Virus record (IMG/VR): IMGVR_UViG_3300044811_000010
Location: 1-64,000 of that record
Direction: 5' to 3' (one strand)
Length of the DNA stretch: 64,000 bases
Source: a virus
The notes under the pieces were generated by a model that was not told where the DNA came from, did not search any database, and was given only the letters and a program-made list of their open reading frames with translations. The position numbers and the translations under genes are program-made. This document shows positions 1 to 12,363 of this stretch, one piece after another. Position 1 is the stretch's first letter. Each line of letters starts with the position of its first letter.

Positions 1-23
1 GGTGTGTCTGCTACACTATGTGC

Positions 24-359
24 ATGACCACGGCAGAGAAGGCGTATATCGCAGGGATCATCGACGGCGAAGGCTGGATGGGCCTTGTGTCTGATGGGAA
101 GGGACGAAACCGGCGACCTCAGATCGAGGTTGAATCCACCGACAGGGAACTTACTCTCTGGCTACATGAGAAGGCAGGTGGTTACAACCCCCGGAGTAGG
201 GAGCCCAGGAACGACCGGCAGAAGGCCATCCACCGCTGGCGAGTCGGCGGGCCGAAGGCCAAGCGACTGCTCGTAGAGGTACTGCCGTACATCGTGATCG
301 AGCGGCGCAGGATACGGGCGATGGAGCTGCTTGGGCACCGGACGGGGCTGGAAAACTAA
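24..359 (+). CDS. single-motif LAGLIDADG homing endonuclease-like protein
   Basis: AYIAGIIDGEG motif near the N-terminus; TACACT -10 box 6 nt before the ATG at 24 (leaderless start). Confidence 0.8.
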   Translation: MTTAEKAYIAGIIDGEGWMGLVSDGKGRNRRPQIEVESTDRELTLWLHEKAGGYNPRSREPRNDRQKAIHRWRVGGPKAKRLLVEVLPYIVIERRRIRAMELLGHRTGLEN

Positions 360-437
360 AGTGGTACGAAGCCCAGAGGCTCATAGTGGTACATCGCCTG
401 CCGGTGGACAAGACGTAGCACGCGCTACGATGTGCCT

Positions 438-881
438 ATGCCTCAGCTCTCTCTCCGCGCCCGGCGCGAACTCGCACGCGGCTTCAACTACCGCGACATC
501 AAGGCCATCGGCAACCGGTACTTCTGGGGACTGGGCAACCGCGCTGTGCTGCAGACGGCGCTCGGCACGCCCAACGCGGACCTCTACTTCTACGCGAGGA
601 CTCCCGGCACGGCCGGGAACTCCATCCGGGTTCGGATCGTTGTTGCTGGCAACAGCACGCCGCTCAGCGTGGTCGTTGCAGGCTCGGACATCACGGTGAA
701 CTCGGCGACCGACTCCGGCGGAGCAGCGACCTCGACAGCCCGAGACGTTGTCCGGGCCATCAACTTCGACAACAAGGCCGGCGGCGCTGGGCTTCTCGTG
801 CATGCACAGCACGCGCCCGCGAACGACGGCACCGGGGTAGTCTCCGCGCTGGCTTACACGAACCTCGCCGGCGCTGTCTAA
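438..881 (+). CDS. hypothetical, possibly virion-associated protein (sheath-like A-x-x-PG-x-x-GN-x-I-x-V motif)
   Basis: ORF 432..881; TACGAT-N6-ATG places the start at 438; Gly/Ala/Thr-rich composition. Confidence 0.6.
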   Translation: MPQLSLRARRELARGFNYRDIKAIGNRYFWGLGNRAVLQTALGTPNADLYFYARTPGTAGNSIRVRIVVAGNSTPLSVVVAGSDITVNSATDSGGAATSTARDVVRAINFDNKAGGAGLLVHAQHAPANDGTGVVSALAYTNLAGAV

Positions 882-894
882 CAGGCGCCTCCGC

Positions 895-923
895 TTGACT
901 TAGACTCCCAGTAGTGGTACGAT
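895..923 (+). promoter_or_regulatory. sigma70/SigA-type promoter
   Basis: TTGACT-N17-TACGAT with TG extended -10. Confidence 0.75.
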
Positions 924-1006
924 CCTTGGGTCGCTGGCGCTACGCGCACTACGTCCGGCTCAGACACGGCAGCGGCTTCTCTTCCCCAACCGAAGGAGGC
1001 TCTACC

Positions 1007-1231
1007 ATGCAGCTCACCAACCGGCATCCTCGCCCGGCCGCTCTCGCGTCAGAACTCGCGGACGCTCAGGCGAAGCACAACGCGGAGGTCGCCGCCTCCA
1101 AGCAGCGACTAGCCGACAAGCGGGACTGGGTCGTTCAGCGGGCGACGGATCGAGTGCAGGCTGTTCGCGAGCTTCAGCGTGACCTGAAGACCGAAGAGCA
1201 GGCGCTCAGCGATCTGATCAAGGCCGCGTAG
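1007..1231 (+). CDS. small coiled-coil protein
   Basis: GAAGGAGG SD before ATG 1007; helical Ala/Glu/Gln/Arg-rich sequence. Confidence 0.7.
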   Translation: MQLTNRHPRPAALASELADAQAKHNAEVAASKQRLADKRDWVVQRATDRVQAVRELQRDLKTEEQALSDLIKAA

Positions 1232-1251
1232 CTGATAGGCTACGGTGTGTA

Positions 1252-1325
1252 GGGCCGACGTTGGAGGGCAGAACGGGTAAACGGAAACGCCCCGGCTGTC
1301 GAGGGTTCGACTCCCTCTCGGTCCA
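1252..1325 (+). ncRNA. tRNA-like RNA with alanine acceptor identity and no canonical anticodon loop
   Basis: Acceptor GGGCCGA/TCGGTCC with G3:U70 and A73; T-arm GAGGG-TTCGACT-CCCTC; central region cannot form a 7-nt anticodon loop. Confidence 0.7.
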
Positions 1326-1327
1326 TC

Positions 1328-1386
1328 GGGGATTACAGGCATCGACGCGCCTAGCGCGGACGTGGGTTCGACTCCCACAGTCTCCA
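1328..1386 (+). ncRNA. minimal tmRNA tRNA-like domain (no mRNA-like domain)
   Basis: 5' GGGGATTACAGGCATCGAC and 3' GGACGTGGGTTCGACTCCCACAGTCTCCA match the tmRNA termini (G3:U70, TCGAC, GGAC, T-arm); they are joined only by the hairpin GCGC-CTA-GCGC. Confidence 0.8.
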
Positions 1387-1387
1387 C

Positions 1388-1680
1388 TGCAAGGCAGTAC
1401 AGACGGCCGCGCGGTCCCCTGCTCAGGTAAGGCACCGTGAGGAAGGTCGAGGCATCGCGCCCCGCCACATTGGGGAGGACGAGGGGCAAGAGGGAGGGCT
1501 TAGGCCCGCTATGACCTCAACTGCGGTCAAGCGATGCGATCCCTGAAGCGCCGGCGAGTGGCAGCCGGACTGGTGGGAGCGGCGGTAGCGAGCAATCGCC
1601 CGCTAGAGCCTAGGCTCTAAGAAGGATGGTCGTCACCGGCACAGGCCGGCACAGAACCTCGCCTATCGGACTGACTTGCA
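1388..1680 (+). ncRNA. rnpB: RNase P RNA (compact, 293 nt)
   Basis: P1 TGCAAGGCAGT/ACTGACTTGCA; P2 GACGGCCG/TGGTCGTC; CR-I GAGGAAGGTCGAGG and CR-V ACAGAACCTCGCCTA form the 8-bp P4 with bulged U; P5/P7 GCATCGC/GCGATGC; P15 TCCC/GGGA with GGT in L15; P19 CCGGC/GCCGG. Confidence 0.9.
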
Positions 1681-1704
1681 TCTGTCAACGAAGTATGCTA
1701 GAGT
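1676..1704 (+). promoter_or_regulatory. promoter of tRNA cluster 1
   Basis: TTGCAT-N17-TAGAGT with TG extension; near-identical copy at 9604-9632. Confidence 0.75.
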
Positions 1705-1762
1705 TCTTCGAACGCCGCAGAGGTTGGCTCTGTAGGAGGTTTGAATCCTCCGTGCGGCTCCA

Positions 1763-1835
1763 GGGGGTGTAGCTCTAACGGTAGAGCGCCTGCCTTGCAA
1801 GCAGAGGGTTGTGGGTTCGAATCCCATCTCCTCCA
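1763..1835 (+). tRNA. tRNA-Ala(TGC)
   Basis: cloverleaf, loop CT-TGC-AA, G3:U70. Confidence 0.95.
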
Positions 1836-1863
1836 CTTGGGGAGTCTTCGGGCTCCCCGCCAA

Positions 1864-1935
1864 GCGCCGCTAACTCAGCGGGAGAGTGCCACGGTGACAA
1901 CGTGGAAGTCGCAAGTTCGATTCTTGCGCGGCGCA
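1864..1935 (+). tRNA. tRNA-Val(GAC)
   Basis: cloverleaf, loop GT-GAC-AA. Confidence 0.95.
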
Positions 1936-1941
1936 CTTCAT

Positions 1942-2014
1942 GGCCCTGTAGCTCAGCGTGTAGAGCGTCCGGTTTACACCCGGCAGGTCGTAGGTTCGAA
2001 TCCTACCAGGGCCA
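1942..2014 (+). tRNA. tRNA-Val(TAC)
   Basis: cloverleaf, loop TT-TAC-AC. Confidence 0.95.
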
Positions 2015-2019
2015 CTCAT

Positions 2020-2096
2020 GGGACAGTATCCCCTCCGTCTGATAAGCGGTAGAAAGGGTAGCTGGTAACACGAGGGTTCAACTCCTTCCTGTCCCA
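2020..2096 (+). tRNA. atypical tRNA-Ile(GAT), D-loop displaced to the 3' side of the anticodon arm
   Basis: Acceptor GGGACAG/CTGTCCC+A; T-arm GAGGG-TTCAACT-CCTTC; anticodon CCGT-CTGATAA-GCGG starts 8 nt after the acceptor; D-loop-like AGCTGGTA lies after it. Confidence 0.75.
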
Positions 2097-2100
2097 CTCC

Positions 2101-2173
2101 GCAGCGGTAGCTCAATTGGTAGAGCACCACCTTGCCATGGTGGATGTCGCGAGTTCGAATCTCGTCCGCTGCT
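2101..2173 (+). tRNA. tRNA-Gly(GCC)
   Basis: cloverleaf, loop TT-GCC-AT, U73. Confidence 0.95.
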
Positions 2174-2176
2174 TAC

Positions 2177-2249
2177 GCCTCCGTAACTCAAATGGCTAGA
2201 GGCCCGGCTCTTACCCGGTGCGATGCGGGTTCGATTCCTGCCGGGGGTA
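2177..2249 (+). tRNA. tRNA-Lys(CTT)
   Basis: cloverleaf, loop CT-CTT-AC. Confidence 0.92.
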
Positions 2250-2253
2250 CTTC

Positions 2254-2326
2254 GCTCGCATGGCGCAAATGGCAGCGCACTCCCTTGGTATGGGAGAGGT
2301 TCTGAGTTCGAGTCTCAGTGTGAGCT
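2254..2326 (+). tRNA. tRNA-Thr(GGT)
   Basis: cloverleaf, loop TT-GGT-AT. Confidence 0.95.
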
Positions 2327-2369
2327 TCGGTGGGAAATGTCGGCCGTAAGGCTGGGCGCCCATCGGTAC

Positions 2370-2437
2370 GCCTCGCCATCAGGAGATGGCCTGTCCCTTG
2401 TAAGGACGGAGGCTGGGTTCGAGTCCCAGGCGAGGCT
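2370..2437 (+). tRNA. tRNA-Thr(TGT), compact D-arm
   Basis: GCCTCGC/GCGAGGC; D hairpin CATC-AGGA-GATG; loop CT-TGT-AA; 68 nt. Confidence 0.85.
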
Positions 2438-2441
2438 CTTC

Positions 2442-2508
2442 GCCGGACGATCAGGGATCAGCCGTCTTTCGTAAGGACGGCAGACGAGTTCGATTCTCGT
2501 GTTCGGCT
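2442..2508 (+). tRNA. tRNA-Thr(CGT), compact D-arm
   Basis: GCCGGAC/GTTCGGC; D hairpin GATC-AGG-GATC; 7-bp anticodon stem, loop TT-CGT-AA; 67 nt. Confidence 0.85.
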
Positions 2509-2511
2509 TAC

Positions 2512-2587
2512 GCAGGTGTGTTCACAACGGCATGATGCTGGCCTTCCAAGCCATGCGATGAGGGTTCGACTCCCTTCACCTGTTCCA
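2512..2587 (+). tRNA. tRNA-Gly(TCC)
   Basis: cloverleaf, loop CT-TCC-AA; followed by an encoded CCA. Confidence 0.92.
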
Positions 2588-2669
2588 AGGTTGTAGGTCA
2601 CCACGACCGCTGACTCCCGCGCGCATAAAGACGTAAGGCGCGGGGCGAGGACGGTGACTGCGTCTATGC

Positions 2670-2742
2670 GGCTTCGTAGCTCAGTCGGTAGAGCAGGCCC
2701 CTGAAAAGGGTCGTGTCGCAGGTTCGAATCCTGCCGAAGCCA
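2670..2742 (+). tRNA. tRNA-Phe(GAA)
   Basis: cloverleaf, loop CT-GAA-AA. Confidence 0.95.
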
Positions 2743-2746
2743 CTTC

Positions 2747-2786
2747 AACGCCCGCTAGAGAGGTCCGATCCCTCCTAGCGGGCGTT
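2747..2786. terminator. bidirectional hairpin terminator between tRNA cluster 1 and convergent ORFs
   Basis: AACGCCCGCTAG...CTAGCGGGCGTT inverted repeat. Confidence 0.65.
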
Positions 2787-2793
2787 CTGCGTT

Positions 2794-2994
2794 CTAGGGC
2801 TTGAGGAACGTGACGACGAGTCCGATGGTGTAAGGATCTCGTTGGTTGCCACCTTCCAGCGCTGAAGCAGACGACAGTGCGTAGCCAGCGTCTGCTGCAG
2901 CCTTCAGCTCGGCGACGAACGTCTCGGTGTCTGACAGAGACGCCGGGATTGGGGTCTTCACCGTCACGGTGTCCACGCGCTTGACCTCGATCAT
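2794..2994 (-). CDS. hypothetical protein
   Basis: ATG at 2994 overlaps the stop of the upstream ORF (ATGA coupling). Confidence 0.6.
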   Translation of the reverse strand: MIEVKRVDTVTVKTPIPASLSDTETFVAELKAAADAGYALSSASALEGGNQRDPYTIGLVVTFLKP

Positions 2995-3203
2995 CCGAGC
3001 ACCAGTACGCTGTTGGCGTTCTTGACCACCGAGACGTGGCCTAGATCGTTCTCGATCCTGATGCGATAGACGACGTGCCACTGGCTGACGCGCTTAGGCT
3101 CCCCAGGGTCGAGGACGACGCCGGGAACGACTTGGCCGCTCTGGTTGTAAGCAACCCTAGCGCCCCTCGTGATCTCAGTACCTCGGCTGTCGCAGACGAT
3201 CAT
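2991..3203 (-). CDS. hypothetical protein (small, SH3-like beta fold possible)
   Basis: ORF translationally coupled to both neighbours. Confidence 0.6.
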   Translation of the reverse strand: MIVCDSRGTEITRGARVAYNQSGQVVPGVVLDPGEPKRVSQWHVVYRIRIENDLGHVSVVKNANSVLVLG

Positions 3204-3946
3204 CGGGATTCACCGGCTGCCTTGGCTGCCGCCTTGCGGCCGGCGGCGTCATCGAGCTGCTCCTGCGTCGTCTCGGGGTAGACACCTAGGATCGCAGCGT
3301 CGAGCAGCAGCTTGAGGTTGACGGGGCGGTACTTCGTCTGCTCGACCGAGAGGTTGATGTGGTTGCGGACGAACGGAACGAAGGCGTCCCGGCTGTAGCC
3401 GTTGTTGTGGATGTGGCCGTGGACGCGGATGTGGTCGGCGGACATGGGCCCGTCCTCGGCGTCGTTCCATGCGTAGTGCGAGAAGCTGACTTGGTGCTGG
3501 CAGTCGGCCGGGTCGCCGAGTGGGTCGTCAAACCCGCGCACGCGCAGGTACGGCTCCTCTGCGTGGACTTCGAGGCCCAGCGCGAACGGCCGCACGACTT
3601 GGAAGCCTGACTTCTTGTAGAAGCTGTAGGGCTGCTTGTCGTGGTTGCCGATGATCAGCAGCTTACGGGCGCCGGTCAGCTCCTTGGCGATCAGGTGCTT
3701 GAAGCGGCCGTTGCCTCGGTAGCTGAGGTCGCCAAGGTGGAGCACCGTAGCGTCGTCAGGCACTTGGGCTCGCCATTCGGCGATCATCACTTGCTCGTGG
3801 TCTTCCGGCCTATGGCAGAAGCCGACGATGTTGTCGTGGCCGAAGTGCGTGTCGGAGACGATCCAAGTGTTCTCTGGGTCGATGTCGTCACGGAACTTCA
3901 TGGCCGGGCGCGATTCGGACGCGCTGCCGGTTCTAGAGTTGCTCAT
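3200..3946 (-). CDS. calcineurin-like metallophosphoesterase
   Basis: SDTHFGH, HLGD, GNHD and HGHIH motifs; leaderless TACGAT-N6-ATG. Confidence 0.9.
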   Translation of the reverse strand: MSNSRTGSASESRPAMKFRDDIDPENTWIVSDTHFGHDNIVGFCHRPEDHEQVMIAEWRAQVPDDATVLHLGDLSYRGNGRFKHLIAKELTGARKLLIIGNHDKQPYSFYKKSGFQVVRPFALGLEVHAEEPYLRVRGFDDPLGDPADCQHQVSFSHYAWNDAEDGPMSADHIRVHGHIHNNGYSRDAFVPFVRNHINLSVEQTKYRPVNLKLLLDAAILGVYPETTQEQLDDAAGRKAAAKAAGESR

Positions 3947-4067
3947 ACGAGAATCGTACCACTAACGGGCCTGATTAGCACGCTTTCGCGAGCGATTAGC
4001 ACGATCACCGGCCCGGAATCGAAGATAAAGTGGCGGTTAGAGGGTCTAACCGCAACTTTACTGGCAC

Positions 4068-4409
4068 TCAGAACCCGAGTTCGTCAAGGCTGGCGCGTGG
4101 GTCGGAATCTAGGACCACTTCTTCGCCGCTGCAGCCCCAAGGCTCGGCGCAGGGGACGTGATGTGGGCACGGACGGGCAACGCGCTTGTAGCCCTTCGGA
4201 ATGCTGCGCGCCCTAGGAGGCGTCGGCTTGTCGATGAACACGCCGAACTCCTTGAAGCAGTCGGCGCAGAGGTCGTACTTGCGATCCGGGTACAGCCCAG
4301 GGTCCTGCTGACGGCCGTTTGCCTTCAGGCCGGGCACGTCGATGGTGCGGCGACCGCTGCGGATTTCCCTACCGCAGCGGTCGCACTCGATGATGTTCCT
4401 GACGCCCAT
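4068..4409 (-). CDS. zinc-finger hypothetical protein
   Basis: CDRC...DLCADC plus further Cys/His residues. Confidence 0.65.
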   Translation of the reverse strand: MGVRNIIECDRCGREIRSGRRTIDVPGLKANGRQQDPGLYPDRKYDLCADCFKEFGVFIDKPTPPRARSIPKGYKRVARPCPHHVPCAEPWGCSGEEVVLDSDPRASLDELGF

Positions 4410-5812
4410 CAGAGCGCCGCCCTCTCACGGATCTGGTCGAACGTCTGCTCGTTGACGAGCTGGCCGTCCTTGAACACCGTCTGCAGCGCGTCGCACTCGT
4501 CGTTGTCGAGCCACACGCCTTCCCTGTCCGTGTGGAAGGTGTTGTGCTGCAGGTTCTGGATCAGTGTCAAGCGGCCCTTCTTCGACGCCTTGGTGGAGTC
4601 CAAGGGCTTCTTGTACACGTCGTGCCACTCGCCGTCGCGTTGCTGAGCGCTGCTCTTGAACGCGAAGCGGCAGGTGTCGCGGTTGAGGCGCTGCAGGAGG
4701 CCTCCGCCCATCCCGAACACGAGGTTCTCGGGGCTGAACCCCTGCAACATAGCGCGGTTGACGATCTTCTCGATGCCATGCTCGTCAATCCCGTCGCCCC
4801 ACAGCAGCCGGACGTGCGGGTCGAGGACCCTGAATCCCTTAGGCGTCTGGGTTCCGCCGTAGTAGCTCCACAGCCGCTCCAAGAGCGCCGAGGTCAGGAG
4901 CTGCGGAGTCGGATGGTCGCGCGTGACCGAGTCCGGCCGCACGACGAACACGCCGTCGCGCGAGAGGATGCGGTCCTTGAACGTCGTCCCGACCCGATCC
5001 ACGAACTCGTAGATGTCGTAGGAGTCCGCGACGACGCTGAGGATGCCGCCGGGGTGGTTGTCGAGAAGCCGCGACGTGATCGCGGCCTCTCCATCACGGC
5101 CGAGCGAGGTCATGACCGAGTGCTCGGTCGCCGGAACGCTGAACGCCAGCGTGTTGGGGTCAGCGCCATAGTCACGGATTGCCAGAAGCAGCGCCGGCAG
5201 CGTGTCAGCGCCAACGAAGCTCGTCAAATGGCCCGCCACGGCAATCGCGGCGGCCTCATGGCCCGCTGCACCCCGGTATCCGAAGTCGTGGAGCATGAAT
5301 TGAAGCCCATCGAGGCCCGATCCGGCCGCAGTGAGGCGTTCGGCGAGCATTCGCTTGACCGAGCGGCTCCTAGTGGCAACCGTCGTCGGGTACCAGACGT
5401 GCATGAGCAGCGATTCGAGCGCGTTGGTGAGCCAGAACGCATCGGGGTCGGTGTTCTCGACCGCCATCAGCACGTTCCCGACCGGGACAACGGACCCCTC
5501 GGGCACGGCCTTGATGTGCAGCGGCAGACGCCCTCCATGCCGGTCGATGATCGTCTCCCAGCCCTTGTAGTTGAAGACCGAAGCGTCCCCGAAGTGGACC
5601 CGAGCCAGCTCGAAGGCTTCACTGAGGTTCTCGTAGGTCACGCGAGGGATGGTCTTCAGGATGGACTGCAGGCCGAAGAACACCGTCTCGTCGTACTCCG
5701 AACCCTGACGGGCTTCGAGGTAGCTGTAGACGCCGGTCGTGTTGGCCGGGTACTGATTCCAGTGGCCCAGCTTGTAACTGTCGGTTGCGAGGATCGGATT
5801 GTCGAGCATCAT
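4409..5812 (-). CDS. nadV: nicotinamide phosphoribosyltransferase (NAMPT)
   Basis: TDSYKLGH, LHDFGYRG, PATEHS, SVVADSYD, VVRPDS, WGDGI and FGMGGGLLQ motifs. Confidence 0.95.
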   Translation of the reverse strand: MMLDNPILATDSYKLGHWNQYPANTTGVYSYLEARQGSEYDETVFFGLQSILKTIPRVTYENLSEAFELARVHFGDASVFNYKGWETIIDRHGGRLPLHIKAVPEGSVVPVGNVLMAVENTDPDAFWLTNALESLLMHVWYPTTVATRSRSVKRMLAERLTAAGSGLDGLQFMLHDFGYRGAAGHEAAAIAVAGHLTSFVGADTLPALLLAIRDYGADPNTLAFSVPATEHSVMTSLGRDGEAAITSRLLDNHPGGILSVVADSYDIYEFVDRVGTTFKDRILSRDGVFVVRPDSVTRDHPTPQLLTSALLERLWSYYGGTQTPKGFRVLDPHVRLLWGDGIDEHGIEKIVNRAMLQGFSPENLVFGMGGGLLQRLNRDTCRFAFKSSAQQRDGEWHDVYKKPLDSTKASKKGRLTLIQNLQHNTFHTDREGVWLDNDECDALQTVFKDGQLVNEQTFDQIRERAAL

Positions 5813-5814
5813 GG

Positions 5815-6885
5815 CTACGACTCCTTTCGATTGAGGTAGTCCACCAGCATCCCCATCAGCGGACGGTGCTCGGGGACAAGGTTGTTGTAGAACTGCTCTC
5901 GGGAGACTGGGTTGCCGAGTTCCTTCCCGTACTTCACGTCAGGCAGGTCAATCCACTTGACCTCTTCGATGTCGTCGCCCGGCGTGGGGCGGCCGTGGGT
6001 GTACTGCGCCGTGAACAGCATCGTCTTGATGCAGTCCGGCTCGTTGCGGTAGCGCCAGTCATCGACTCGAAGCGACCCGACGTAGCGCACATCCTCGACG
6101 TTCAGGCTCGTCTCTTCCTGAACCTCACGCTTGGCGTCGGCCTCGAAGCTGTCGGAGCGCGGGTCGGAGAAACCGCCAATGAAGCGATAGAGCGTCTCGT
6201 TTGGCTTGCGGCCGAGCAGAAGCTGCAAGGGCTTCTCCGTCGCATAGAAGGCTGCGGCCTCGTCTCGATGCACCGGACACGCAGTCCGTGGCTGGCAGCT
6301 TCGACAGTCGATCCACGACTGCGAAGCCTTGCGCTCGCGCGAGGGAACGTCCTTGAGAATCGCCACGTCTACCGTCGTGTAGGCGGTCGGGAAGCGGGCC
6401 TGCGACGCCCAGATGACGCCGGCACGGAACTCGGGGCTGGACTTAGCCCGGCTGCGGGCGATGTCCTTGCGCTGCGCGCGGCCGGAGTAGAACGTGGTCT
6501 GCGTCAGCTCCTGCGTCGGGTGGTTGCCCGTGTAGTGGCTGATGAAGGAGTCGCGGCCGCCGTAGAGGACGACGCTCTGGCCGGGAGCGACGAGGTTGGC
6601 GATGTTGTCGTCAAGAACGTGCGACCACGCGCGGTCGTTGTTCAAGTCCTTGACGTACAGGACGTTGGCCTCGGGGAACTCCGCGAGGATCATCTGCTTG
6701 CGCGCCTCGAAGTCGAGCGGATTGTTCGTGGAGACGGAAAGCGGCGAAAGGCCGAGGAAGATGATGACCTTGTCGTGCCGGTCGCAGACGTACTTGATCA
6801 GCTCCCTATGAGCGTTGTGCAGCTCATGGACCTGGAATCGCCCTACCAGTACCCCTACGTCGTACTGCTTCTCTGTTGGCTGCAT
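5815..6885 (-). CDS. nadM: bifunctional NMN adenylyltransferase / Nudix ADP-ribose pyrophosphatase
   Basis: GRFQVHELHNAH (HxGH-like), NPL, Nudix box GG..REVQEET; SD GAAGGAGG before ATG 6885. Confidence 0.9.
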   Translation of the reverse strand: MQPTEKQYDVGVLVGRFQVHELHNAHRELIKYVCDRHDKVIIFLGLSPLSVSTNNPLDFEARKQMILAEFPEANVLYVKDLNNDRAWSHVLDDNIANLVAPGQSVVLYGGRDSFISHYTGNHPTQELTQTTFYSGRAQRKDIARSRAKSSPEFRAGVIWASQARFPTAYTTVDVAILKDVPSRERKASQSWIDCRSCQPRTACPVHRDEAAAFYATEKPLQLLLGRKPNETLYRFIGGFSDPRSDSFEADAKREVQEETSLNVEDVRYVGSLRVDDWRYRNEPDCIKTMLFTAQYTHGRPTPGDDIEEVKWIDLPDVKYGKELGNPVSREQFYNNLVPEHRPLMGMLVDYLNRKES

Positions 6886-6986
6886 CAGGCGCAAACCTCC
6901 TTCTATGTCCGGGCCGCGCATCGGTGCGACGGCTCTACGAGAACCGTACCACAGGGCGGCGACGAGCGCAAGGGTAGAGTGGGAGG

Positions 6987-7391
6987 GTGGCTTTTCTCCG
7001 AGTAGTCAGAAAGAACTGGGTAGTGATTCTACTTCTGTTCGCCATCGTCTCGTCCTTCTTGGCGTCGATGCAGCAGACGCGCGCCGACACGGCTCAAGTT
7101 CGATCCAAGGCAATCGCCCTCTGCACCATCGACAACCAACGCGCCGTGCTGGTCATCACCTTCAAGTTCTCGGTGGCGAGGGCGGCGGACAAGCGCGGCG
7201 AGCACGCGGCGGCTGCTCACTTCCGGGCTCTTGGAGATAGTGGGCTGGCGTTGATCCCACTTGCCCCGGAAGATCAAGCCGAGCGAGCCCACCTAGCCGA
7301 TGTCATTCCGCAGGGAGGGCACTTCGTGCTGCCGCAGAAGGCGAAGGACGCGATCCGCGCGGGATGCGTGGATTCCTACCGCGCCAACTAG
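6987..7391 (+). CDS. membrane-anchored hypothetical protein
   Basis: N-terminal hydrophobic helix; TAGAGT-N6-GTG. Confidence 0.6.
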   Translation: MAFLRVVRKNWVVILLLFAIVSSFLASMQQTRADTAQVRSKAIALCTIDNQRAVLVITFKFSVARAADKRGEHAAAAHFRALGDSGLALIPLAPEDQAERAHLADVIPQGGHFVLPQKAKDAIRAGCVDSYRAN

Positions 7392-7421
7392 GTCAGAGAA
7401 GCGTGCTATAGTCCCTGACGC

Positions 7422-7499
7422 GCTGCCGCGCATAGGCGAGCAAGGCCGGCTGTAACCCGGCGTCCTCTGGACTTGCAGGTTCGACTCCTGACGGCAGCA
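7422..7499 (+). tRNA. tRNA-Tyr(GTA)
   Basis: loop CT-GTA-AC, long variable arm, reduced D-stem. Confidence 0.88.
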
Positions 7500-7503
7500 C
7501 TTC

Positions 7504-7587
7504 GGAAGGCTCCGCTTGGTGGCAGGCAACTCGGTTCGAACCCGAGGGCGGCGTTTCTCGTTGGGGGTTCGACTCCTCAGCCTTCCG
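7504..7587 (+). tRNA. tRNA-Ser(CGA), 8/4 fold
   Basis: 8-bp acceptor GGAAGGCT/AGCCTTCC, 4-bp T-stem, loop TT-CGA-AC, G73. Confidence 0.85.
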
Positions 7588-7591
7588 CTTC

Positions 7592-7663
7592 GTCGTAGTG
7601 CTGGGAGTGGCGACCAGCCGGGCTGCAACCCCGAGAACGTCGGTTCGAATCCGACCTACGACT
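7592..7663 (+). tRNA. tRNA-Cys(GCA)
   Basis: loop CT-GCA-AC, U73. Confidence 0.92.
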
Positions 7664-7666
7664 TAC

Positions 7667-7753
7667 GGAGAGGACCCGGCTGGATCAGGAGCTTGCCCGC
7701 TAAGCAAGTAGCGCGTCCTAGATGTGTTCGGGGTTCGAGTCCCCGTCTCTCCG
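7667..7753 (+). tRNA. tRNA-Ser(GCT)
   Basis: loop CC-GCT-AA, long variable arm, G73. Confidence 0.9.
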
Positions 7754-7758
7754 CTCAC

Positions 7759-7844
7759 GGAGAGGACCCGGCTGGATCAGGAGCATCCCTGGAAAGGATG
7801 TGCGGCGGTCACGCGTCTTCAGGGTTCGAGTCCCTGTCTCTCCG
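7759..7844 (+). tRNA. tRNA-Ser(GGA)
   Basis: loop CT-GGA-AA, long variable arm, G73. Confidence 0.92.
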
Positions 7845-8031
7845 CTTGATCGCTCCAACGGCTGCCCCGAGTAGCGCGACGATCATCACCAGTGCCGCAA
7901 GTGCCGCCACTACGACAGCCGCGTAGATGACGATGAAGGGCAGCAGGATCCCCGCGACGAGCGCGATTCCGGTGCCCAAGCAGCCTCCGTCAGACATCAG
8001 CCGCAGCAGACTCCACTGCAGGCGCCGCAGC

Positions 8032-9564
8032 TCACGCGAGCGCCTCGGCCCGCGTGAGCTGCCACTCCCGCGACATCGTCTGCTCGGTGGGCTGGCAGAC
8101 GACATCGTCCAGCACGGCGTTGAGGATCTCGCCGATCTTGCGGCCGTCCGCGCCGATGGCGCGCACGTCATGGCCGTTGATCTTCAGGTCCCTCGGAGAC
8201 GTGGGGACGTTGTCCTTCTCCGCCTCACGGCGCAGCAGTTCCATCCGGCTGATCTGCTCGATGTGACCCTTGTTGGGCTTGCCCTTGCCAGTCAGGTCGC
8301 ACATGCGGTGCAGGAACAGGTCGGCCAGCAGCTCGTCCCCGAACTGCACACGCATCCGGCGGACCTTCGAGCCCTTGAGCTTGCCGTCGACGGTGACCAT
8401 GTGATTGCGAATGAGCAGGCGCACGTCCTCGCGCAGACCGTTGCCTGCGTTCAGGCGCCGAGCGGTCTTGTTCCAGATGCGGGCGCCCGCAACCTCGTGG
8501 TCCTCCGTGGCGACCATCATCGGCGCGCCGCTAGCGACAGAGCGGGACGCGGTCCCGTCCTGAGCGTAGTAGTGCTTGCGTCCGTCCTTCCCAATCCACG
8601 CCGTCTCAGGCTTGCCCGCGTCGTGGAACAGCAGGGCCATGCGGACGCGCAGCGGCGCGTCGACGTGCGTAGCCGTCGTCAGAGCAGCGAACGTGTGCTC
8701 GTCGGTGGTCAGGTCGTGGTAGCGCGAGCCCTGATCGAAGCCGATCATCGGAGCCAGCTCAGGCAGCAGTGTGGCGAGAACGCCAGTGTCGAGCGCCAGC
8801 CTCAGCGCCTTGACCGGCTCGTCGCCCATCAGCAGCTTGCACAGCTCTTCCAGCACGGTTCCGGACGCGTAGCCATTGGCGCTCAGGCCGTTTACAGCGT
8901 CAGCGTGCTCACGCATCTGGTCGAGCGTGTTGCTCGACAGGTCGTAGCCAAGCGTCGAAACGAAGCGCAGAGCACGCAGCGTGCGCAGCGGGTCGTCGCG
9001 GAACGAATCCGGGTGAGTGGTGCGGATGATCTTATGGCTCAGGTCGTACAGGCCGCAGTTCGTCGGGTCCACGACGTTCTCGACCAGTGCCCCGCCCGAC
9101 ATGGTGGTCAACGAAGACATGCCGGCAGTCGGATCCACGATCTTGTAGAGAGCGTTGAACGTGAAGTCACGGCGCACGGCGTCTTCGTCCAGCCGCAGGT
9201 TCGGGTCAACCACGATGTCAAACGCGCGATGCACGTTCTCGCCGGGGGCGGGCGCGCGAGGGCGCTCCGTGCGCGGCAGGACGACTTCGATCAGACCCAT
9301 GCCGCGCGCGGCGACCCGCCATCCGGCCTGCCGACCATCGCGCAGCACCAGCGGGGAAACGACGTTGGACTTGTTCGCGGGGTCGTACCGAATCGCGGCG
9401 TCCTTGAGCGCAATGCCCAGCTTCGCCAGTCCGACGCCTCGGATCATGTAGTCAGCGTCCTTGACCTTGCGGCCGATCAGTTCGTCTCGAACGGAGCCGC
9501 CGACGCGGTAGGCTTCGAAGCCCAGGCCGGCGATGAAAGTGTCTGTCCGCTCGATGTACGCCAT
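8032..9564 (-). CDS. cca: CCA-adding tRNA nucleotidyltransferase with HD domain
   Basis: VGGSVRD, DAD, RRDFTFNAL, FRDDPLRTLRALRF and LLFHDAGK motifs; leaderless TACGTT-N6-ATG at 9564. Confidence 0.93.
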   Translation of the reverse strand: MAYIERTDTFIAGLGFEAYRVGGSVRDELIGRKVKDADYMIRGVGLAKLGIALKDAAIRYDPANKSNVVSPLVLRDGRQAGWRVAARGMGLIEVVLPRTERPRAPAPGENVHRAFDIVVDPNLRLDEDAVRRDFTFNALYKIVDPTAGMSSLTTMSGGALVENVVDPTNCGLYDLSHKIIRTTHPDSFRDDPLRTLRALRFVSTLGYDLSSNTLDQMREHADAVNGLSANGYASGTVLEELCKLLMGDEPVKALRLALDTGVLATLLPELAPMIGFDQGSRYHDLTTDEHTFAALTTATHVDAPLRVRMALLFHDAGKPETAWIGKDGRKHYYAQDGTASRSVASGAPMMVATEDHEVAGARIWNKTARRLNAGNGLREDVRLLIRNHMVTVDGKLKGSKVRRMRVQFGDELLADLFLHRMCDLTGKGKPNKGHIEQISRMELLRREAEKDNVPTSPRDLKINGHDVRAIGADGRKIGEILNAVLDDVVCQPTEQTMSREWQLTRAEALA

Positions 9565-9603
9565 GGGAGAAACGTACCACATTGGGCTTCCGGGCGCAAG
9601 TTC

Positions 9604-9632
9604 TTGCACATGTCACGAAGATGTGCTAGAGT
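9604..9632 (+). promoter_or_regulatory. promoter of tRNA cluster 3 (divergent from cca)
   Basis: TTGCAC-N17-TAGAGT with TG extension. Confidence 0.75.
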
Positions 9633-9685
9633 CCCATCTCTGGTCAGCGCTCCGTCGGCGACGGCGGGTAGCGGGGCCAGGACAC

Positions 9686-9757
9686 TGAGGAGTAGTGTAA
9701 TGGCAGCACCGGAGTCCTTGAAACTTCGTAGTGCGGGTTCGAGTCCCGCCTCCTCAT
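9686..9757 (+). tRNA. tRNA-Gln(TTG)
   Basis: cloverleaf, loop CC-TTG-AA. Confidence 0.9.
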
Positions 9758-9761
9758 TCAC

Positions 9762-9833
9762 TGCGGAATGGTGTAACGGCAGCATGGCGGGTTCTGAGCC
9801 CGTTCGATCTAGGTTCGAATCCTAGTTCCGCAG
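9762..9833 (+). tRNA. tRNA-Gln(CTG)
   Basis: cloverleaf, loop TT-CTG-AG. Confidence 0.93.
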
Positions 9834-9838
9834 CTCAC

Positions 9839-9909
9839 TGGCGTGTAGCTCAAGGGCAGAGCCTCCGGTTGTTACCCGGCGGATGAGGGTTCGAATCCTT
9901 CCATGCCAG
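9839..9909 (+). tRNA. tRNA-Asn(GTT)
   Basis: cloverleaf, loop TT-GTT-AC, G73. Confidence 0.93.
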
Positions 9910-9914
9910 CTCAT

Positions 9915-9988
9915 CAGCGTGTGGCGCAGTCTGGTAGCGCTCTTTTCTGGGGAAAATGAGGTCGCAGGTTCAAATCCTGCCACGCTGA
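9915..9988 (+). tRNA. tRNA-Pro(GGG)
   Basis: cloverleaf, C1-G72, loop CT-GGG-GA. Confidence 0.88.
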
Positions 9989-9994
9989 CTTCTC

Positions 9995-10067
9995 GCAGCC
10001 ATGGTCTAGTGGTCATGATGCCGGCCTTTCAAGCCGGACGACGAGGGTTCGAATCCCTCTGGCTGTA
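9995..10067 (+). tRNA. tRNA-Glu(TTC)
   Basis: cloverleaf, loop CT-TTC-AA. Confidence 0.93.
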
Positions 10068-10071
10068 CTAC

Positions 10072-10144
10072 GGCGCGTTGGGGTAACGGTTAGCCTCTCA
10101 GCTTCTCAAGCTGCTGGATACGAGTTCGAATCTCGTACGCGCTA
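10072..10144 (+). tRNA. tRNA-Glu(CTC)
   Basis: cloverleaf, loop TT-CTC-AA. Confidence 0.92.
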
Positions 10145-10149
10145 CTCAT

Positions 10150-10221
10150 CGGGATCAAGTGTTTATGGCTGCACCGGCCCCTCGGACGGGTCAAGACGGA
10201 GTTCGAATCTCCGGTTCCCGA
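10150..10221 (+). tRNA. tRNA-Pro(CGG)
   Basis: cloverleaf, loop CT-CGG-AC. Confidence 0.88.
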
Positions 10222-10225
10222 CTTC

Positions 10226-10308
10226 GCTCCCGTGGTGGAATGGTAGACGCGCTAGGTCGAGAGCCTAGTGCCCTAACGGGCGTGCAGGTTCAAGTCCTGC
10301 CGGGAGCA
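10226..10308 (+). tRNA. tRNA-Leu(GAG)
   Basis: long variable arm, loop TC-GAG-AG. Confidence 0.92.
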
Positions 10309-10314
10309 CTGCAT

Positions 10315-10399
10315 ACCAGCGTGGTGAAATTTGGTAGACGCAGCAGGTTCAGAACCTGCCGGCCGCAAGGTCTTGAGGGTTCAAGTCCCTCCGCTGGTA
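10315..10399 (+). tRNA. tRNA-Leu(CAG)
   Basis: long variable arm, loop TT-CAG-AA. Confidence 0.93.
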
Positions 10400-10403
10400 C
10401 TAC

Positions 10404-10488
10404 GCAAGAGTGGCGAAATGGGTAAACGCTCCGGGCTCAAACCCCGGCGAGGTCATTCCTCTTGAGGGTTCGATTCCCTCCTCTTGTA
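10404..10488 (+). tRNA. tRNA-Leu(CAA)
   Basis: long variable arm, loop CT-CAA-AC. Confidence 0.93.
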
Positions 10489-10492
10489 CTAC

Positions 10493-10566
10493 GTCTCCTT
10501 AGCTCAGCAGGATAGAGCGCTGGTCCGCGAAGCCAGAGGCCGCAGGTTCGAATCCTGCAGGGGACG
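10493..10566 (+). tRNA. tRNA-Arg(GCG)
   Basis: cloverleaf, A20, loop CC-GCG-AA. Confidence 0.9.
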
Positions 10567-10570
10567 CTCC

Positions 10571-10644
10571 GGTGATGTAACTCAGTCGGATAGAGTGGCG
10601 GCTTGTCAAGCCGTTGGTCGCGGGTTCGAGTCCCGTCATCACCG
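10571..10644 (+). tRNA. tRNA-Asp(GTC)
   Basis: cloverleaf, loop TT-GTC-AA, G73. Confidence 0.95.
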
Positions 10645-10648
10645 CTTC

Positions 10649-10721
10649 GCCTCCGTAACTCAGCGGACAGAGTGCTTGGCCTCGAACCAAGTGGTCGCGG
10701 GTTCAAATCCTGCCGGGGGCG
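10649..10721 (+). tRNA. tRNA-Arg(TCG)
   Basis: cloverleaf, A20, loop CC-TCG-AA. Confidence 0.9.
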
Positions 10722-10727
10722 CTACAC

Positions 10728-10802
10728 GGTGAATGTAGACTAATCGGTCAAGTCCCTTGGTTGTGAACCAAGCCGATGCGGGTTCGAGTCCCGTCGTTCA
10801 CC
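10728..10802 (+). tRNA. tRNA-His(GTG)
   Basis: G-1:C73 pair, loop TT-GTG-AA. Confidence 0.93.
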
Positions 10803-10807
10803 CTCTC

Positions 10808-10876
10808 GGGTCATAGGTCATGGCGACCAAGCAGGTTCCAACCCTGCAGGACAGCGTTCGATTCGTTGATGACCCG
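10808..10876 (+). tRNA. tRNA-Trp(CCA), compact D-arm
   Basis: loop TT-CCA-AC, G73, 69 nt. Confidence 0.87.
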
Positions 10877-10880
10877 CTTC

Positions 10881-10947
10881 GGCTCTCTGAAGGTACGACA
10901 CGGTCCCTCATAAGGACGGTGGACAGGTTCGAGTCCTGTGGGAGCTA
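10881..10947 (+). tRNA. tRNA-Met/Ile2(CAT), essentially D-armless
   Basis: GGCTCTC/GGGAGCT+A, loop CT-CAT-AA, intact T-arm, no D-stem; 67 nt. Confidence 0.78.
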
Positions 10948-10951
10948 CTTC

Positions 10952-11020
10952 GCCCTTGAAGTTGGATACGCGACGGCCCTCCTAAGGCTTGCGCAGCGAG
11001 TTCGATTCTCGCCGGGGGCT
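10952..11020 (+). tRNA. tRNA-Arg(CCT), reduced D-arm
   Basis: loop CT-CCT-AA, intact T-arm; 69 nt. Confidence 0.8.
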
Positions 11021-11021
11021 T

Positions 11022-11092
11022 CGCAGATAGGTGGTCTGGTGACCATTCGGGCCTCATAAGCCTGAGAGCAGGGTTCGACTCCCGGTCTGCTA
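11022..11092 (+). tRNA. tRNA-fMet-like (CAT)
   Basis: C1:U72 mismatch, A73, loop CT-CAT-AA, G-rich anticodon stem. Confidence 0.78.
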
Positions 11093-11146
11093 CTTGTGGT
11101 ACGATTCACCCTCGGCTGGCGGCTCGGGGGAGACGGTCGAATCCTT

Positions 11147-11184
11147 GAGGCCCGGACGGCTGCGAAAGCGGCTCTCCGGGCCTC
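11147..11184. terminator. hairpin terminator
   Basis: GAGGCCCGGA..GCTGC-GAAA-GCGGC..TCCGGGCCTC between convergent units. Confidence 0.6.
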
Positions 11185-11193
11185 TTGTTCGTT

Positions 11194-11931
11194 CTACGCT
11201 ACGTTGATCTGCCGGAATGGGTCGTCGTACAGATCGTAAAGCTGGTCCACAGCAGCGACGTTGTAGACCTGGTGGCCCGAGAGCGGGAGCCCATGCAGGC
11301 CGCGCGCCTCGTGGATGTGACCGCAGACGACGGCTGCAGGGTTCGCTCGTACGATGGCGTCGTTCAACGTAGGGTCGCCGACGTTCATTCCGCCCCAGTT
11401 CCCGTACTTGTTGCGCTGCTTCTCGCTCGTAGGGATGTAGTCCCCCGCGCGATGAGGCGGCCCATGCGTCACGAGGATGTCGATTCCGGTCGGGATTCTG
11501 TCGGCGCGAGCCTGCAACGCCTCCTCCCGTCCGTAGAAGGCCCAGTAAGGCAAACCGGGCACCCACGGCGTCCCCCACACTCGCAGGCCCGCAGCGCGCG
11601 TCTCAGAGTCCTGCAGCAGTGTCCAGGGAAGATCGGGCACCAAGAACGCGTGCTCACCGACGAAGTCGTGATTGCCCCAGATAGCCACGACTTCCGTGCC
11701 ACGCTTACGGACTGCGAGAAGCCACTCGCGGAACTCAGTGTCGAGCCATCGGCCCTGCTGAAGACCGCCCTTGTCGATGCCTCCGCGTCCGAGGGCGCGT
11801 TGATCGGCGCCGCGCAGTGCGAAAGGCCGGAAGTCGGGGCAGATGTCGCCGCCGAGGATCAGCAGATCGCACTCCGGGGCTTCGGGGAGGTTACCGTGCA
11901 GGTCAGAGACGGCGTATACGACGGGCGCCAT
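11194..11931 (-). CDS. metallophosphoesterase
   Basis: SDLHG, GGD, GNHD, THGPP and CGHIHE motifs. Confidence 0.9.
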   Translation of the reverse strand: MAPVVYAVSDLHGNLPEAPECDLLILGGDICPDFRPFALRGADQRALGRGGIDKGGLQQGRWLDTEFREWLLAVRKRGTEVVAIWGNHDFVGEHAFLVPDLPWTLLQDSETRAAGLRVWGTPWVPGLPYWAFYGREEALQARADRIPTGIDILVTHGPPHRAGDYIPTSEKQRNKYGNWGGMNVGDPTLNDAIVRANPAAVVCGHIHEARGLHGLPLSGHQVYNVAAVDQLYDLYDDPFRQINVA

Positions 11932-11940
11932 GGAGACTCC

Positions 11941-12363
11941 TTATCCTTCGATGATGTCAGGCACGAACTTGGTCATGTCGGCCTCTGAGTAGCTCGGGCC
12001 GCGCAAGACCTTACCGTCGCTACGGTACAGCGGCTTGCCGTCGGTGTCAAGCTTGCTCATGTTGGCCCGGTGGACCTCGGCGAATGCGCCGTCGATGTCA
12101 AGCCCGAACGTCACAGCCGCGCCCTCGATGACGTATCGCAGGTCGGCAAGCTCCAACAGCAGGTTCTGTAGATGAGGCCACTGGACATGTAGCGGAGCAG
12201 CCCGGCGGCCCATAAACATCAGCGCATCAAGCTCGGCCATGACCTCCTCGAACTCCTCACGGATCAGCCGCGCGCGGAGGGCGACGAGGTCCACGTCGGG
12301 GATCGTCGGATGGTCGGCCGCCGGCAGGCGAAACGCGGCGTGGAACCTGCGGACGAGGGTCAT
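11941..12363 (-). CDS. MazG-like all-alpha NTP pyrophosphohydrolase
   Basis: LIREEFEE, ELADLRYV and EVHRANMSK motifs. Confidence 0.85.
   Translation of the reverse strand: MTLVRRFHAAFRLPAADHPTIPDVDLVALRARLIREEFEEVMAELDALMFMGRRAAPLHVQWPHLQNLLLELADLRYVIEGAAVTFGLDIDGAFAEVHRANMSKLDTDGKPLYRSDGKVLRGPSYSEADMTKFVPDIIEG

Follow-up and report, generated by a model that had tools for sequence, protein, structure and literature searches.

A tRNA gene array that serves 19 amino acids and seems to skip isoleucine raises the question of whether the missing gene is absent or escapes recognition. Such an array lies in the IMG/VR virus record IMGVR_UViG_3300044811_000010, of which the first 64 kb (64,000 nucleotides, hereafter the window) were analyzed; the whole record is 80 kb long, and its completeness was estimated by CheckV at 66%. 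The array spans positions 1229-11093 of the window, which also holds a portal gene. Among sequencing runs, the window in full is contained only in a soil metagenome DNA run, which may be the source of the sequence, and no RNA run is listed for it. ARAGORN finds 29 tRNAs covering 19 amino acids in the whole window, leaving isoleucine as the only amino acid without a canonical tRNA, and it calls nothing at 2020-2096. In this place, within the 85-nt gap between tRNA-Val (ending at 2014/2015) and tRNA-Gly (starting at 2101), a 77-nt element on the plus strand occupies exactly one tRNA slot, with spacers of 4-5 nt on each side, as among its neighbors. The original prediction, made from the letters of the window, had regarded this element as a tRNA-Ile(GAU) with a rearranged core and as the only isoleucine candidate in the set, and the ARAGORN results bear out the latter point. 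The comparative analysis described below confirms that 2020-2096 is a real isoleucine tRNA gene of unusual fold.

The element shares with canonical tRNAs a 7-bp acceptor stem with a discriminator base, a T-arm, and a 7-nt anticodon loop with U33 and a purine at position 37. What it lacks is the D-arm hairpin (positions 10-13 with 22-25, closing a D-loop) that normally separates the acceptor stem from the anticodon arm. The anticodon hairpin (CCGU-CUGAUAA-GCGG) begins 8 nt past the acceptor stem, and 22 nt, which contain AGCUGGUA, separate the anticodon arm from the T-arm; in these respects, as in its normal acceptor stem and T-arm, the sequence is as it had been described. When aligned to the Rfam tRNA model RF00005, the element reaches 28.9 bits, below the gathering score of 29, with the acceptor stem, anticodon arm and T-arm aligned, 15 D-arm model positions deleted, and an 18-nt insert placed in the variable region.

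A family of relatives with the same layout

A search pattern built on the anticodon arm and the T-loop retrieved identical layouts in unrelated IMG/VR contigs, and looser patterns found them in 93 and then in more than 119 contigs. Pooled from several scans, the Ile-type relatives sharing the 77-nt layout amount to 194 unique sequences. The source contigs of these sequences, and of the Arg-type sequences discussed below, differ greatly in G+C content and origin. At the level of the surrounding DNA, Megablast of window positions 1-12000 against GenBank phages returned no close relatives. The search for homologues and covariation that had been proposed as a check of the rearranged fold thus yields a large family, in which every helix covaries.

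The covariation was assessed on an alignment (A1) of 128 representatives, each pair of which differs at more than 3 positions. In A1, standard pairs fill 97.5% of the pair cells, and covariation scores 0.864, as compared to 0.213 for shuffled alignments and at most 0.16 when the pairing partners are slid. RNAalifold, supplied with no structure, recovered the same four helices, and mutual information with average-product correction placed 17 helix pairs at the top, the sole extra pair being columns 42:52 (see below). The helix that encloses the anticodon arm (columns 11-13/37-39, corresponding to window positions 2030-2032/2056-2058) is 99.7% paired, with compensatory changes. Columns 11:39 are CG in 96 sequences, AU in 28, UA in 3 and GC in 1, and columns 12:38 are CG in 69, UA in 49 and AU in 6. 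Columns 11, 12, 38 and 39 were unconstrained in the search patterns; pair 13:37 was fixed by the early patterns and switches from C:G to A:U in two loci (L268 and L284) retrieved by a scan anchored elsewhere. The presence of a D-like stem around the anticodon arm, as originally proposed, is therefore upheld by both RNAalifold and mutual information. Its details differ from that proposal, which had paired UAUCC with GGGUA over 5 bp: the family supports 3 bp, and the proposed register, which fits the window sequence and not the family, is off by one, as the pair 11:38 that it entails is unpaired in 82 of the 128 sequences.

Sequence motifs between the helices are conserved as strongly. The motifs UAU, CCUC, GAAAG and UA recur in 75-78 of the 78 real matches of a scan anchored elsewhere, which shows that they are not artefacts of the search patterns. 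Likewise, C32, U33, A35, U36 and A37 are invariant among the 194 unique relatives, even though the scan placed no constraint on positions 34-38. A covariance model built from the family (R1), which comprises UAU, the 3-bp stem around the anticodon arm, the G-AAA junction, U-A-R-Y-Y-G-G and the T-arm, matches the element over its full length with 92.3 bits (E = 9e-22), whereas the canonical tRNAs of the window reach at most 27.7 bits.

Mapped onto the window, all on the plus strand, this layout reads as follows. The acceptor strand GGGACAG (2020-2026) pairs with CUGUCCC at 2089-2095; all 7 of its pairs covary, and it is 96% paired among the 128 representatives. U8, A9 and U10 (UAU, 2027-2029), left free in the scan anchored elsewhere, are near-invariant (75 of 78) and lead into the 5' strand of the D-like stem, CCC (2030-2032), whose partner is GGG at 2056-2058. 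Between the D-like stem and the anticodon arm lie the junction C-U (2033-2034) on one side, where CCUC is kept in 76 of 78 matches, and the junction U-A-G-A-A-A (2050-2055), with a probable AAA bulge after the G, on the other. The latter motif was not fixed either, and GAAAG is found in 75 of 78 matches; the G-AAA junction probably has a structural role. The anticodon arm itself (2035-2049) has a stem of four Watson-Crick or G-U pairs (2035-2038/2046-2049), plus a U.U layer, and the loop CUGAUAA (2039-2045); it is 99.4% paired in the family, with 3 covarying pairs, and its anticodon GAU (2041-2043) is the predicted reader of AUC and AUU. The connector U-A-G-C-U-G-G-U-A-A-C-A-C (2059-2071), which resembles a D-loop fused to a variable loop, precedes the T-arm GAGGG-UUCAACU-CCUUC (2072-2088; stem 2072-2076/2084-2088, loop 2077-2083), which is 98.3% paired with 4 covarying pairs and an invariant G53:C61. 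The gene ends with the discriminator A2096 and encodes no CCA; A73 is present in 194 of 194 unique Ile-type relatives.

Some members of the wider class depart from this layout: the place of the U-N-GAAA junction is taken by a motif of 8-9 nt (UCAUUAACA or CGUUAAnC, for example), and their connector is shorter (GGAGUAU). These sub-variants, exemplified by L074:5614-5692 (+), L011:872-950 (-), L045:1730-1807 (-) and many Arg types, indicate that the class has several structural subtypes.

A D-loop-like segment downstream of the anticodon arm

Following the D-like stem, the connector has the consensus U-A, then R-Y-Y-G-G-U-N-R-C-A-Y, and then the T-stem. Its first R and last Y covary (A:U in 124, G:C in 45 and G:G in 14 of the 194 unique sequences) and correspond to columns 42:52, the extra pair detected in A1 (AU 77, GC 34). 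By analogy, the corresponding pair of the element, G2061:C2071, is similar to R15:Y48, the Levitt pair of canonical tRNA, and A-R-Y-Y-G-G-U resembles a D-loop read from A14 to U20, in which A2060 would match A14, G2064-G2065 would match G18-G19, and U2066 would match position 20. Five bases follow the U20 equivalent, which is the length of a class-I variable loop, and two of them, C50 and A51, are near-invariant although unfixed by the anticodon-agnostic scan.

The order of modules in a canonical tRNA is [8, 9] [10-13] [D-loop] [22-25] [26] [anticodon arm] [variable loop]. In the element, it becomes [8, 9] [10-13] [anticodon arm] [22-25] [D-loop 14-20] [variable loop] [T-arm]. Such an arrangement may preserve the canonical number of stacked layers. 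U2029 may lie opposite U2059 as a U.U layer, and U2027 may pair with A2060 in the way of the canonical U8:A14; from a count of stacked layers, C2033 could pair with G2052, with U2034 opposite U2050. From the anticodon loop to the top of the D-like stem, this gives 4 bp, a U.U layer, C2033:G2052, 3 bp and a further U.U layer, i.e., 10 layers, equal to the 5+1+4 = 10 of canonical tRNA. The Arg subtype that combines a 5-bp anticodon stem with a 2-bp outer stem likewise counts 10 layers.

Restriction to isoleucine and arginine identities

The anticodons of the family are far from arbitrary. When positions 34-38 were left free, every real match carried NAU; among the 194 unique Ile-type sequences, the anticodon is GAU in 89, UAU in 99 and CAU in 6. 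Five further matches of the Ile pattern with anticodons other than NAU lack a T-arm and were rejected as chance matches. Weaker R1 matches in the same loci carry Arg anticodons. A scan requiring only that position 35 be other than A, with the anticodon otherwise free, gave good acceptor and T stems in 121 of 124 of the matches listed, and among these listed matches all 104 unique sequences are Arg types (UCU 55, ACG 36, UCG 9, CCU 4). Examples are found at L001:8849-8924 (+), L073:1711-1786 (+) and L054:9511-9585 (+), and in L117, L127 and L289-L404. The complementary scan (A at position 35 and any base but U at 36) hit 12 contigs, in which no match folds, and these non-folding matches calibrate the chance rate. 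Some Arg members have junctions identical to those of the Ile family (CCUC and U-N-GAAAG), pointing to one scaffold with two identities. Judged from these sequences, then, the fold appears to define a phage-wide structural class that is used only for Ile (GAU, UAU, CAU) and Arg (UCU, ACG, UCG, CCU).

The base that follows the GG of the connector tracks these identities. It is A in 104 of 104 Arg types among the matches listed, a position unfixed by the pattern, and U in more than 125 unique Ile types against 4 exceptions in a dedicated scan (>97%). A20 is the main determinant for bacterial arginyl-tRNA synthetase (ArgRS), and U20 and A73 are among the determinants for isoleucyl-tRNA synthetase (IleRS); in the corresponding table, the two bacterial identity sets that include position 20 are those of Ile and Arg (PMC9976931). 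The tracking of identity by the position-20 base, together with the invariant A73, speaks most strongly for a genuine D-loop role of the relocated segment and for RNAs that are meant to be charged. It also agrees with the original prediction of a D-loop-like GG at the site of the variable loop. The remaining Ile identity elements give a mixed picture. The element has all of A73, A35, U36, A37, G/C34 and A38 from the Ile identity set (PMC9976931), with A73, A35, U36 and A37 invariant in the family, while the core determinants other than U20/U21, namely G16, U12-A23, C29-G41 and C4-G69, are not conserved in the family; the element has a C at the position-16 equivalent and A4-U69. The shared reliance of Ile and Arg on position 20 plus the anticodon is a plausible permissive factor for the restriction of the class.

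Rewired genes in phage tRNA repertoires

The presence of a canonical tRNA with the same anticodon was compared among loci with at least 10 canonical tRNAs. Canonical GAU is present in 45% of loci without a rewired gene of that anticodon and in 11% of loci with one (Fisher p 7e-5); the corresponding values are 39% vs 4% for UAU (p 3e-4), 51% vs 8% for UCU (p 5e-3) and 32% vs 0% for ACG (p 3e-4), all four p values being optimistic because the loci are related and partial. In single selection sets, no locus carries both rewired types, so that co-occurrence tables within a set are uninformative, and this pooled comparison was used instead. A comparable gap is seen in Humlepung, a Felixounavirus of E. 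coli K-12, whose tRNA array as shown has no annotated tRNA-Arg; a rewired Arg(UCU) with an encoded CCA lies in an unannotated gap of the array (GenBank MN850564, about 12122-12200). The occurrence of members in phages of E. coli K-12 makes experiments straightforward.

Of 165 Ile types, 22 (13%) have CCA after the discriminator, as do 72 of 107 Arg types (67%), as compared to a chance expectation of 1 in 64 (1.6%). In the window, an open reading frame of the PolyA_pol family (CCA-adding-like) lies inside the array at 8032-9609 (-), and the presence of such a protein fits genes without an encoded CCA. Tandem pairs of rewired copies were additionally observed in L019, L035 and L064.

Carriers of the class extend to cultured phages, in which the genes have largely gone unnoticed. 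The Ile type is found in Streptomyces phages such as Mildred21 (Ile(GAU); NC_042008, about 73702-73778), where it adjoins a tRNA nucleotidyltransferase gene, and in the crAss-like Kehishuvirus 'tikkala' of Bacteroides cellulosilyticus (OQ198717, about 95576-95652), where it lies in the array between tRNA-Trp and tRNA-Met; it is unannotated in both. The Arg(UCU) type is found in 266 GenBank phage records, which include Felix O1-like, phi92-like, Mydovirus and PBECO4-like jumbo phages of Escherichia, Salmonella and Klebsiella, and its sites are mostly unannotated, hidden under a 'hypothetical protein', or tagged 'tRNA-OTHER'. As anticipated for standard tRNA finders, ARAGORN detects only 3 of 274 rewired copies. 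The Ile pattern was also run on cellular genomes (185,579 species, one genome each), in which 49 stretches matched. Five of them, the non-NAU matches already mentioned, which include the only one from an isolate genome (Marivirga), are chance matches, and the others lie in contigs of metagenome-assembled or uncultured genomes, two of these contigs being equal in length to IMG/VR virus contigs. The tRNA-Arg, tRNA-Ile and 'tRNA-like RNA3' of phage T5 were inspected as further candidates and are canonical or unrelated.

Alternative explanations and the favored reading

A low Rfam score, just under the threshold (28.9 against 29), the ARAGORN miss and a fold z score of -1.56 are what a decayed tRNA pseudogene or a chance tRNA-like sequence might give. 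Set against them are hundreds of divergent homologues with compensatory changes in every helix, invariant functional positions and the 92.3 bits of the family model, and with these comparative data the pseudogene reading is in practice refuted. It is also very improbable that the gene is a canonical one whose transcript is re-ordered or spliced, as in permuted or intron-bearing genes, to give an ordinary cloverleaf. All canonical sequence modules are there, and their order alone differs, but two internal segments would have to swap around the 3' strand of the D-like stem, i.e., through at least two cut-and-join events, and we know of no bacterial or phage pathway that performs such a swap. In addition, the acceptor ends are already terminal, covariation backs the stem as it is encoded, around the anticodon arm, and junction motifs, GAAA among them, show the conservation that a mature structure would predict. 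The precedent for re-ordering comes from some eukaryotes, in which permuted and multi-intron tRNA genes exist (PMC9602550).

A small but real chance remains with a conserved RNA that mimics a tRNA without decoding. It might be a decoy or inhibitor for one of the host enzymes acting on tRNA-Ile or tRNA-Arg, whether a nuclease, a toxin, or part of a modification or defense system, or else serve in sensing or regulation. Only mimicry of the real substrates would then account for the retention of the anticodon loop, position 20 and A73. The limitation of the class to two amino-acid identities would suit this explanation, as would its occasional coexistence with an adjacent canonical tRNA of the same anticodon, and phage tRNAs are known to counter tRNA-targeting defenses (PMC10264068 and PMC11464382). 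However, the rewired gene replaces the canonical isoacceptor rather than accompanying it. It is the only Ile tRNA in the window, and the rewired Arg(UCU) of Humlepung lies in an array that, as shown, has no annotated tRNA-Arg. Moreover, three Ile and four Arg anticodons are used, as would be expected of a decoder set, and the acceptor end and discriminator are kept, often with an encoded CCA.

The most probable reading is that 2020-2096 is the gene of a working elongator tRNA-Ile(GAU), the only Ile tRNA of this phage, whose core is non-canonical. Conservation, covariation, anticodon restriction, substitution for canonical genes and the tracking of position 20 support this reading, and from them we infer the three-dimensional fold, charging and decoding. 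Besides the relatedness of the loci in the substitution comparison, several points weigh against it. The single-sequence fold of the element is unexceptional (the z score given above), and the L-shape and the equivalence of layers are inferred from layer counting and analogy. The scans fixed UAU, C32, U-A-R-N-N-G-G and GGTTCRA, so that members with other motifs or identities could have escaped them. Finally, of the 126 loci that carry a rewired GAU gene, 13 have a canonical tRNA-Ile(GAU) as well, often right next to the rewired one, as in L011 (964-1040/1051-1125), L020 (1839-1915/1932-2005) and L054 (4514-4590/4604-4677), where the rewired and canonical genes are 10-16 nt apart. The two may not be fully redundant in such loci and may differ in function.

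In this reading, the acceptor stem is followed by U8-A9-U and by a 3-bp D-like stem whose 'loop' is the entire anticodon arm, joined to it via C-U on one side and U-N-G-AAA on the other. A 12-nt connector then provides both a D-loop (A14, R15, Y, Y, G18, G19, U20) and a variable loop ending in Y48, with a normal T-arm next. The D-like stem would stack on the anticodon stem to give about 10 layers, as the canonical 4+1+5 does, the GG would reach the T-loop at the elbow, and R15:Y48 would close the core, so that the L-shape is kept. The host IleRS could read the anticodon, A37, A73 and the U at position 20, and the charged tRNA would decode AUC and AUU on the host ribosome.

For the class as a whole, we lean slightly toward the view that phages of many lineages (including marine phages, phages of actinobacteria, jumbo coliphages, and crAss-like, Felix O1-like and phi92-like phages) carry an unrecognized class of tRNAs that decode on bacterial ribosomes. 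Their core may be selected for escaping host enzymes that recognize the canonical D-arm or core, while the tRNA would still be chargeable via the anticodon and positions 20 and 73. The earlier suggestion of resistance to host tRNases in particular is pure speculation.

Comparison with known tRNAs and significance

Compared with a canonical tRNA-Ile(GAU) (Rfam RF00005), the element shares the 7-bp acceptor stem, A73, the 5-bp T-stem with a GTTCRA loop, the C-U-GAU-A-A anticodon loop and the array context, as well as the G18-G19-U20 and R15:Y48 elements. It differs in having no D hairpin, as the 10-13/22-25 strands enclose the anticodon arm and not the D-loop, in the placement of the D-loop after the 3' strand, where it is fused to the variable loop, and in the new junctions C-U and U-N-G-AAA. 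Mitochondrial tRNAs (mt-tRNAs) that lack the D-arm are reduced molecules, without GG/T-loop contacts at the elbow, and depend on adapted partner proteins. They are confined to mitochondria, in contrast to the phage class, which has the full length of 77 nt, retains the GG, a canonical T-loop and a Levitt-like pair, and is presumably served by the normal machinery of bacteria. What they have in common with the element is that, in animals (mt-tRNA-Ser(AGY), nematode mt-tRNAs), connectors are found instead of a D hairpin; these D-armless tRNAs are flexible or boomerang-shaped (PMC7609411). Similar to the phage class, tRNA-Sec and allo-tRNAs (8/5, 9/4, 8/4 and 9/3 acceptor/T-stem; PMC5389517) are natural non-canonical tRNAs of bacteria and phages found by metagenome mining. 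In those, helix lengths are altered and the cloverleaf connectivity is kept, whereas the phage class shows the reverse, i.e., canonical acceptor and T lengths with an altered core connectivity. Viral tRNA-like structures and the tRNA-like domain of transfer-messenger RNA (tmRNA) also mimic the L-shape with a non-cloverleaf connectivity and an aminoacylatable acceptor/T-arm module, but they are non-decoding parts of larger RNAs, whereas the element stands alone as a gene the size of a tRNA, has a standard anticodon arm and lies in a tRNA array.

No description of the rewired fold was found in the open-access full-text literature, and an earlier description elsewhere is possible. Phages are absent from a 2020 review of non-canonical tRNAs, and according to a 2024 paper every known bacterial tRNA is canonical. 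If charged and decoding, the class would be a natural and widespread exception compatible with ordinary bacterial synthetases, EF-Tu and ribosomes. It would mean that an L-shape can arise from another strand connectivity, offering a natural test of which core contacts matter, and would account for apparently missing Ile and Arg tRNAs in phage sets. Phage tRNA repertoires are under-counted, given that the gene is unannotated or labeled 'tRNA-OTHER' in GenBank phages. The class may also bear on why phages carry tRNAs at all, and could provide new scaffolds for orthogonal or nuclease-resistant tRNAs.

Other features of the array

The array of the window holds further unusual RNAs. ARAGORN calls a 97-nt 'tRNA-Pro(ggg)' at 1229-1325 (+), which is followed by a 62-nt element at 1328-1389 (+) that matches only the tRNA-like domain of tmRNA (Rfam RF00023; 51.3 and 42.7 bits in two scans), without the mRNA-like part and the pseudoknots. 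Next to it, a reduced RNA at 1391-1681 (+) resembles RNase P class A, with P4-type motifs GAGGAAGGUC ... ACAGAACC; it scores 32.4 bits on the Rfam model (E = 1.6e-8, and 3.5e-7 in another scan), as compared to a gathering score of 100. At the other end of the array, the Rfam tRNA model gives tRNA-Met (11021-11093, +) just 26.7 bits. Besides the PolyA_pol-family gene, two protein genes lie among the tRNA clusters, one for a metallophosphoesterase at 3200-3946 (-) and one for a nicotinamide/nicotinate phosphoribosyltransferase (NAMPT-like) at 4409-5812 (-).
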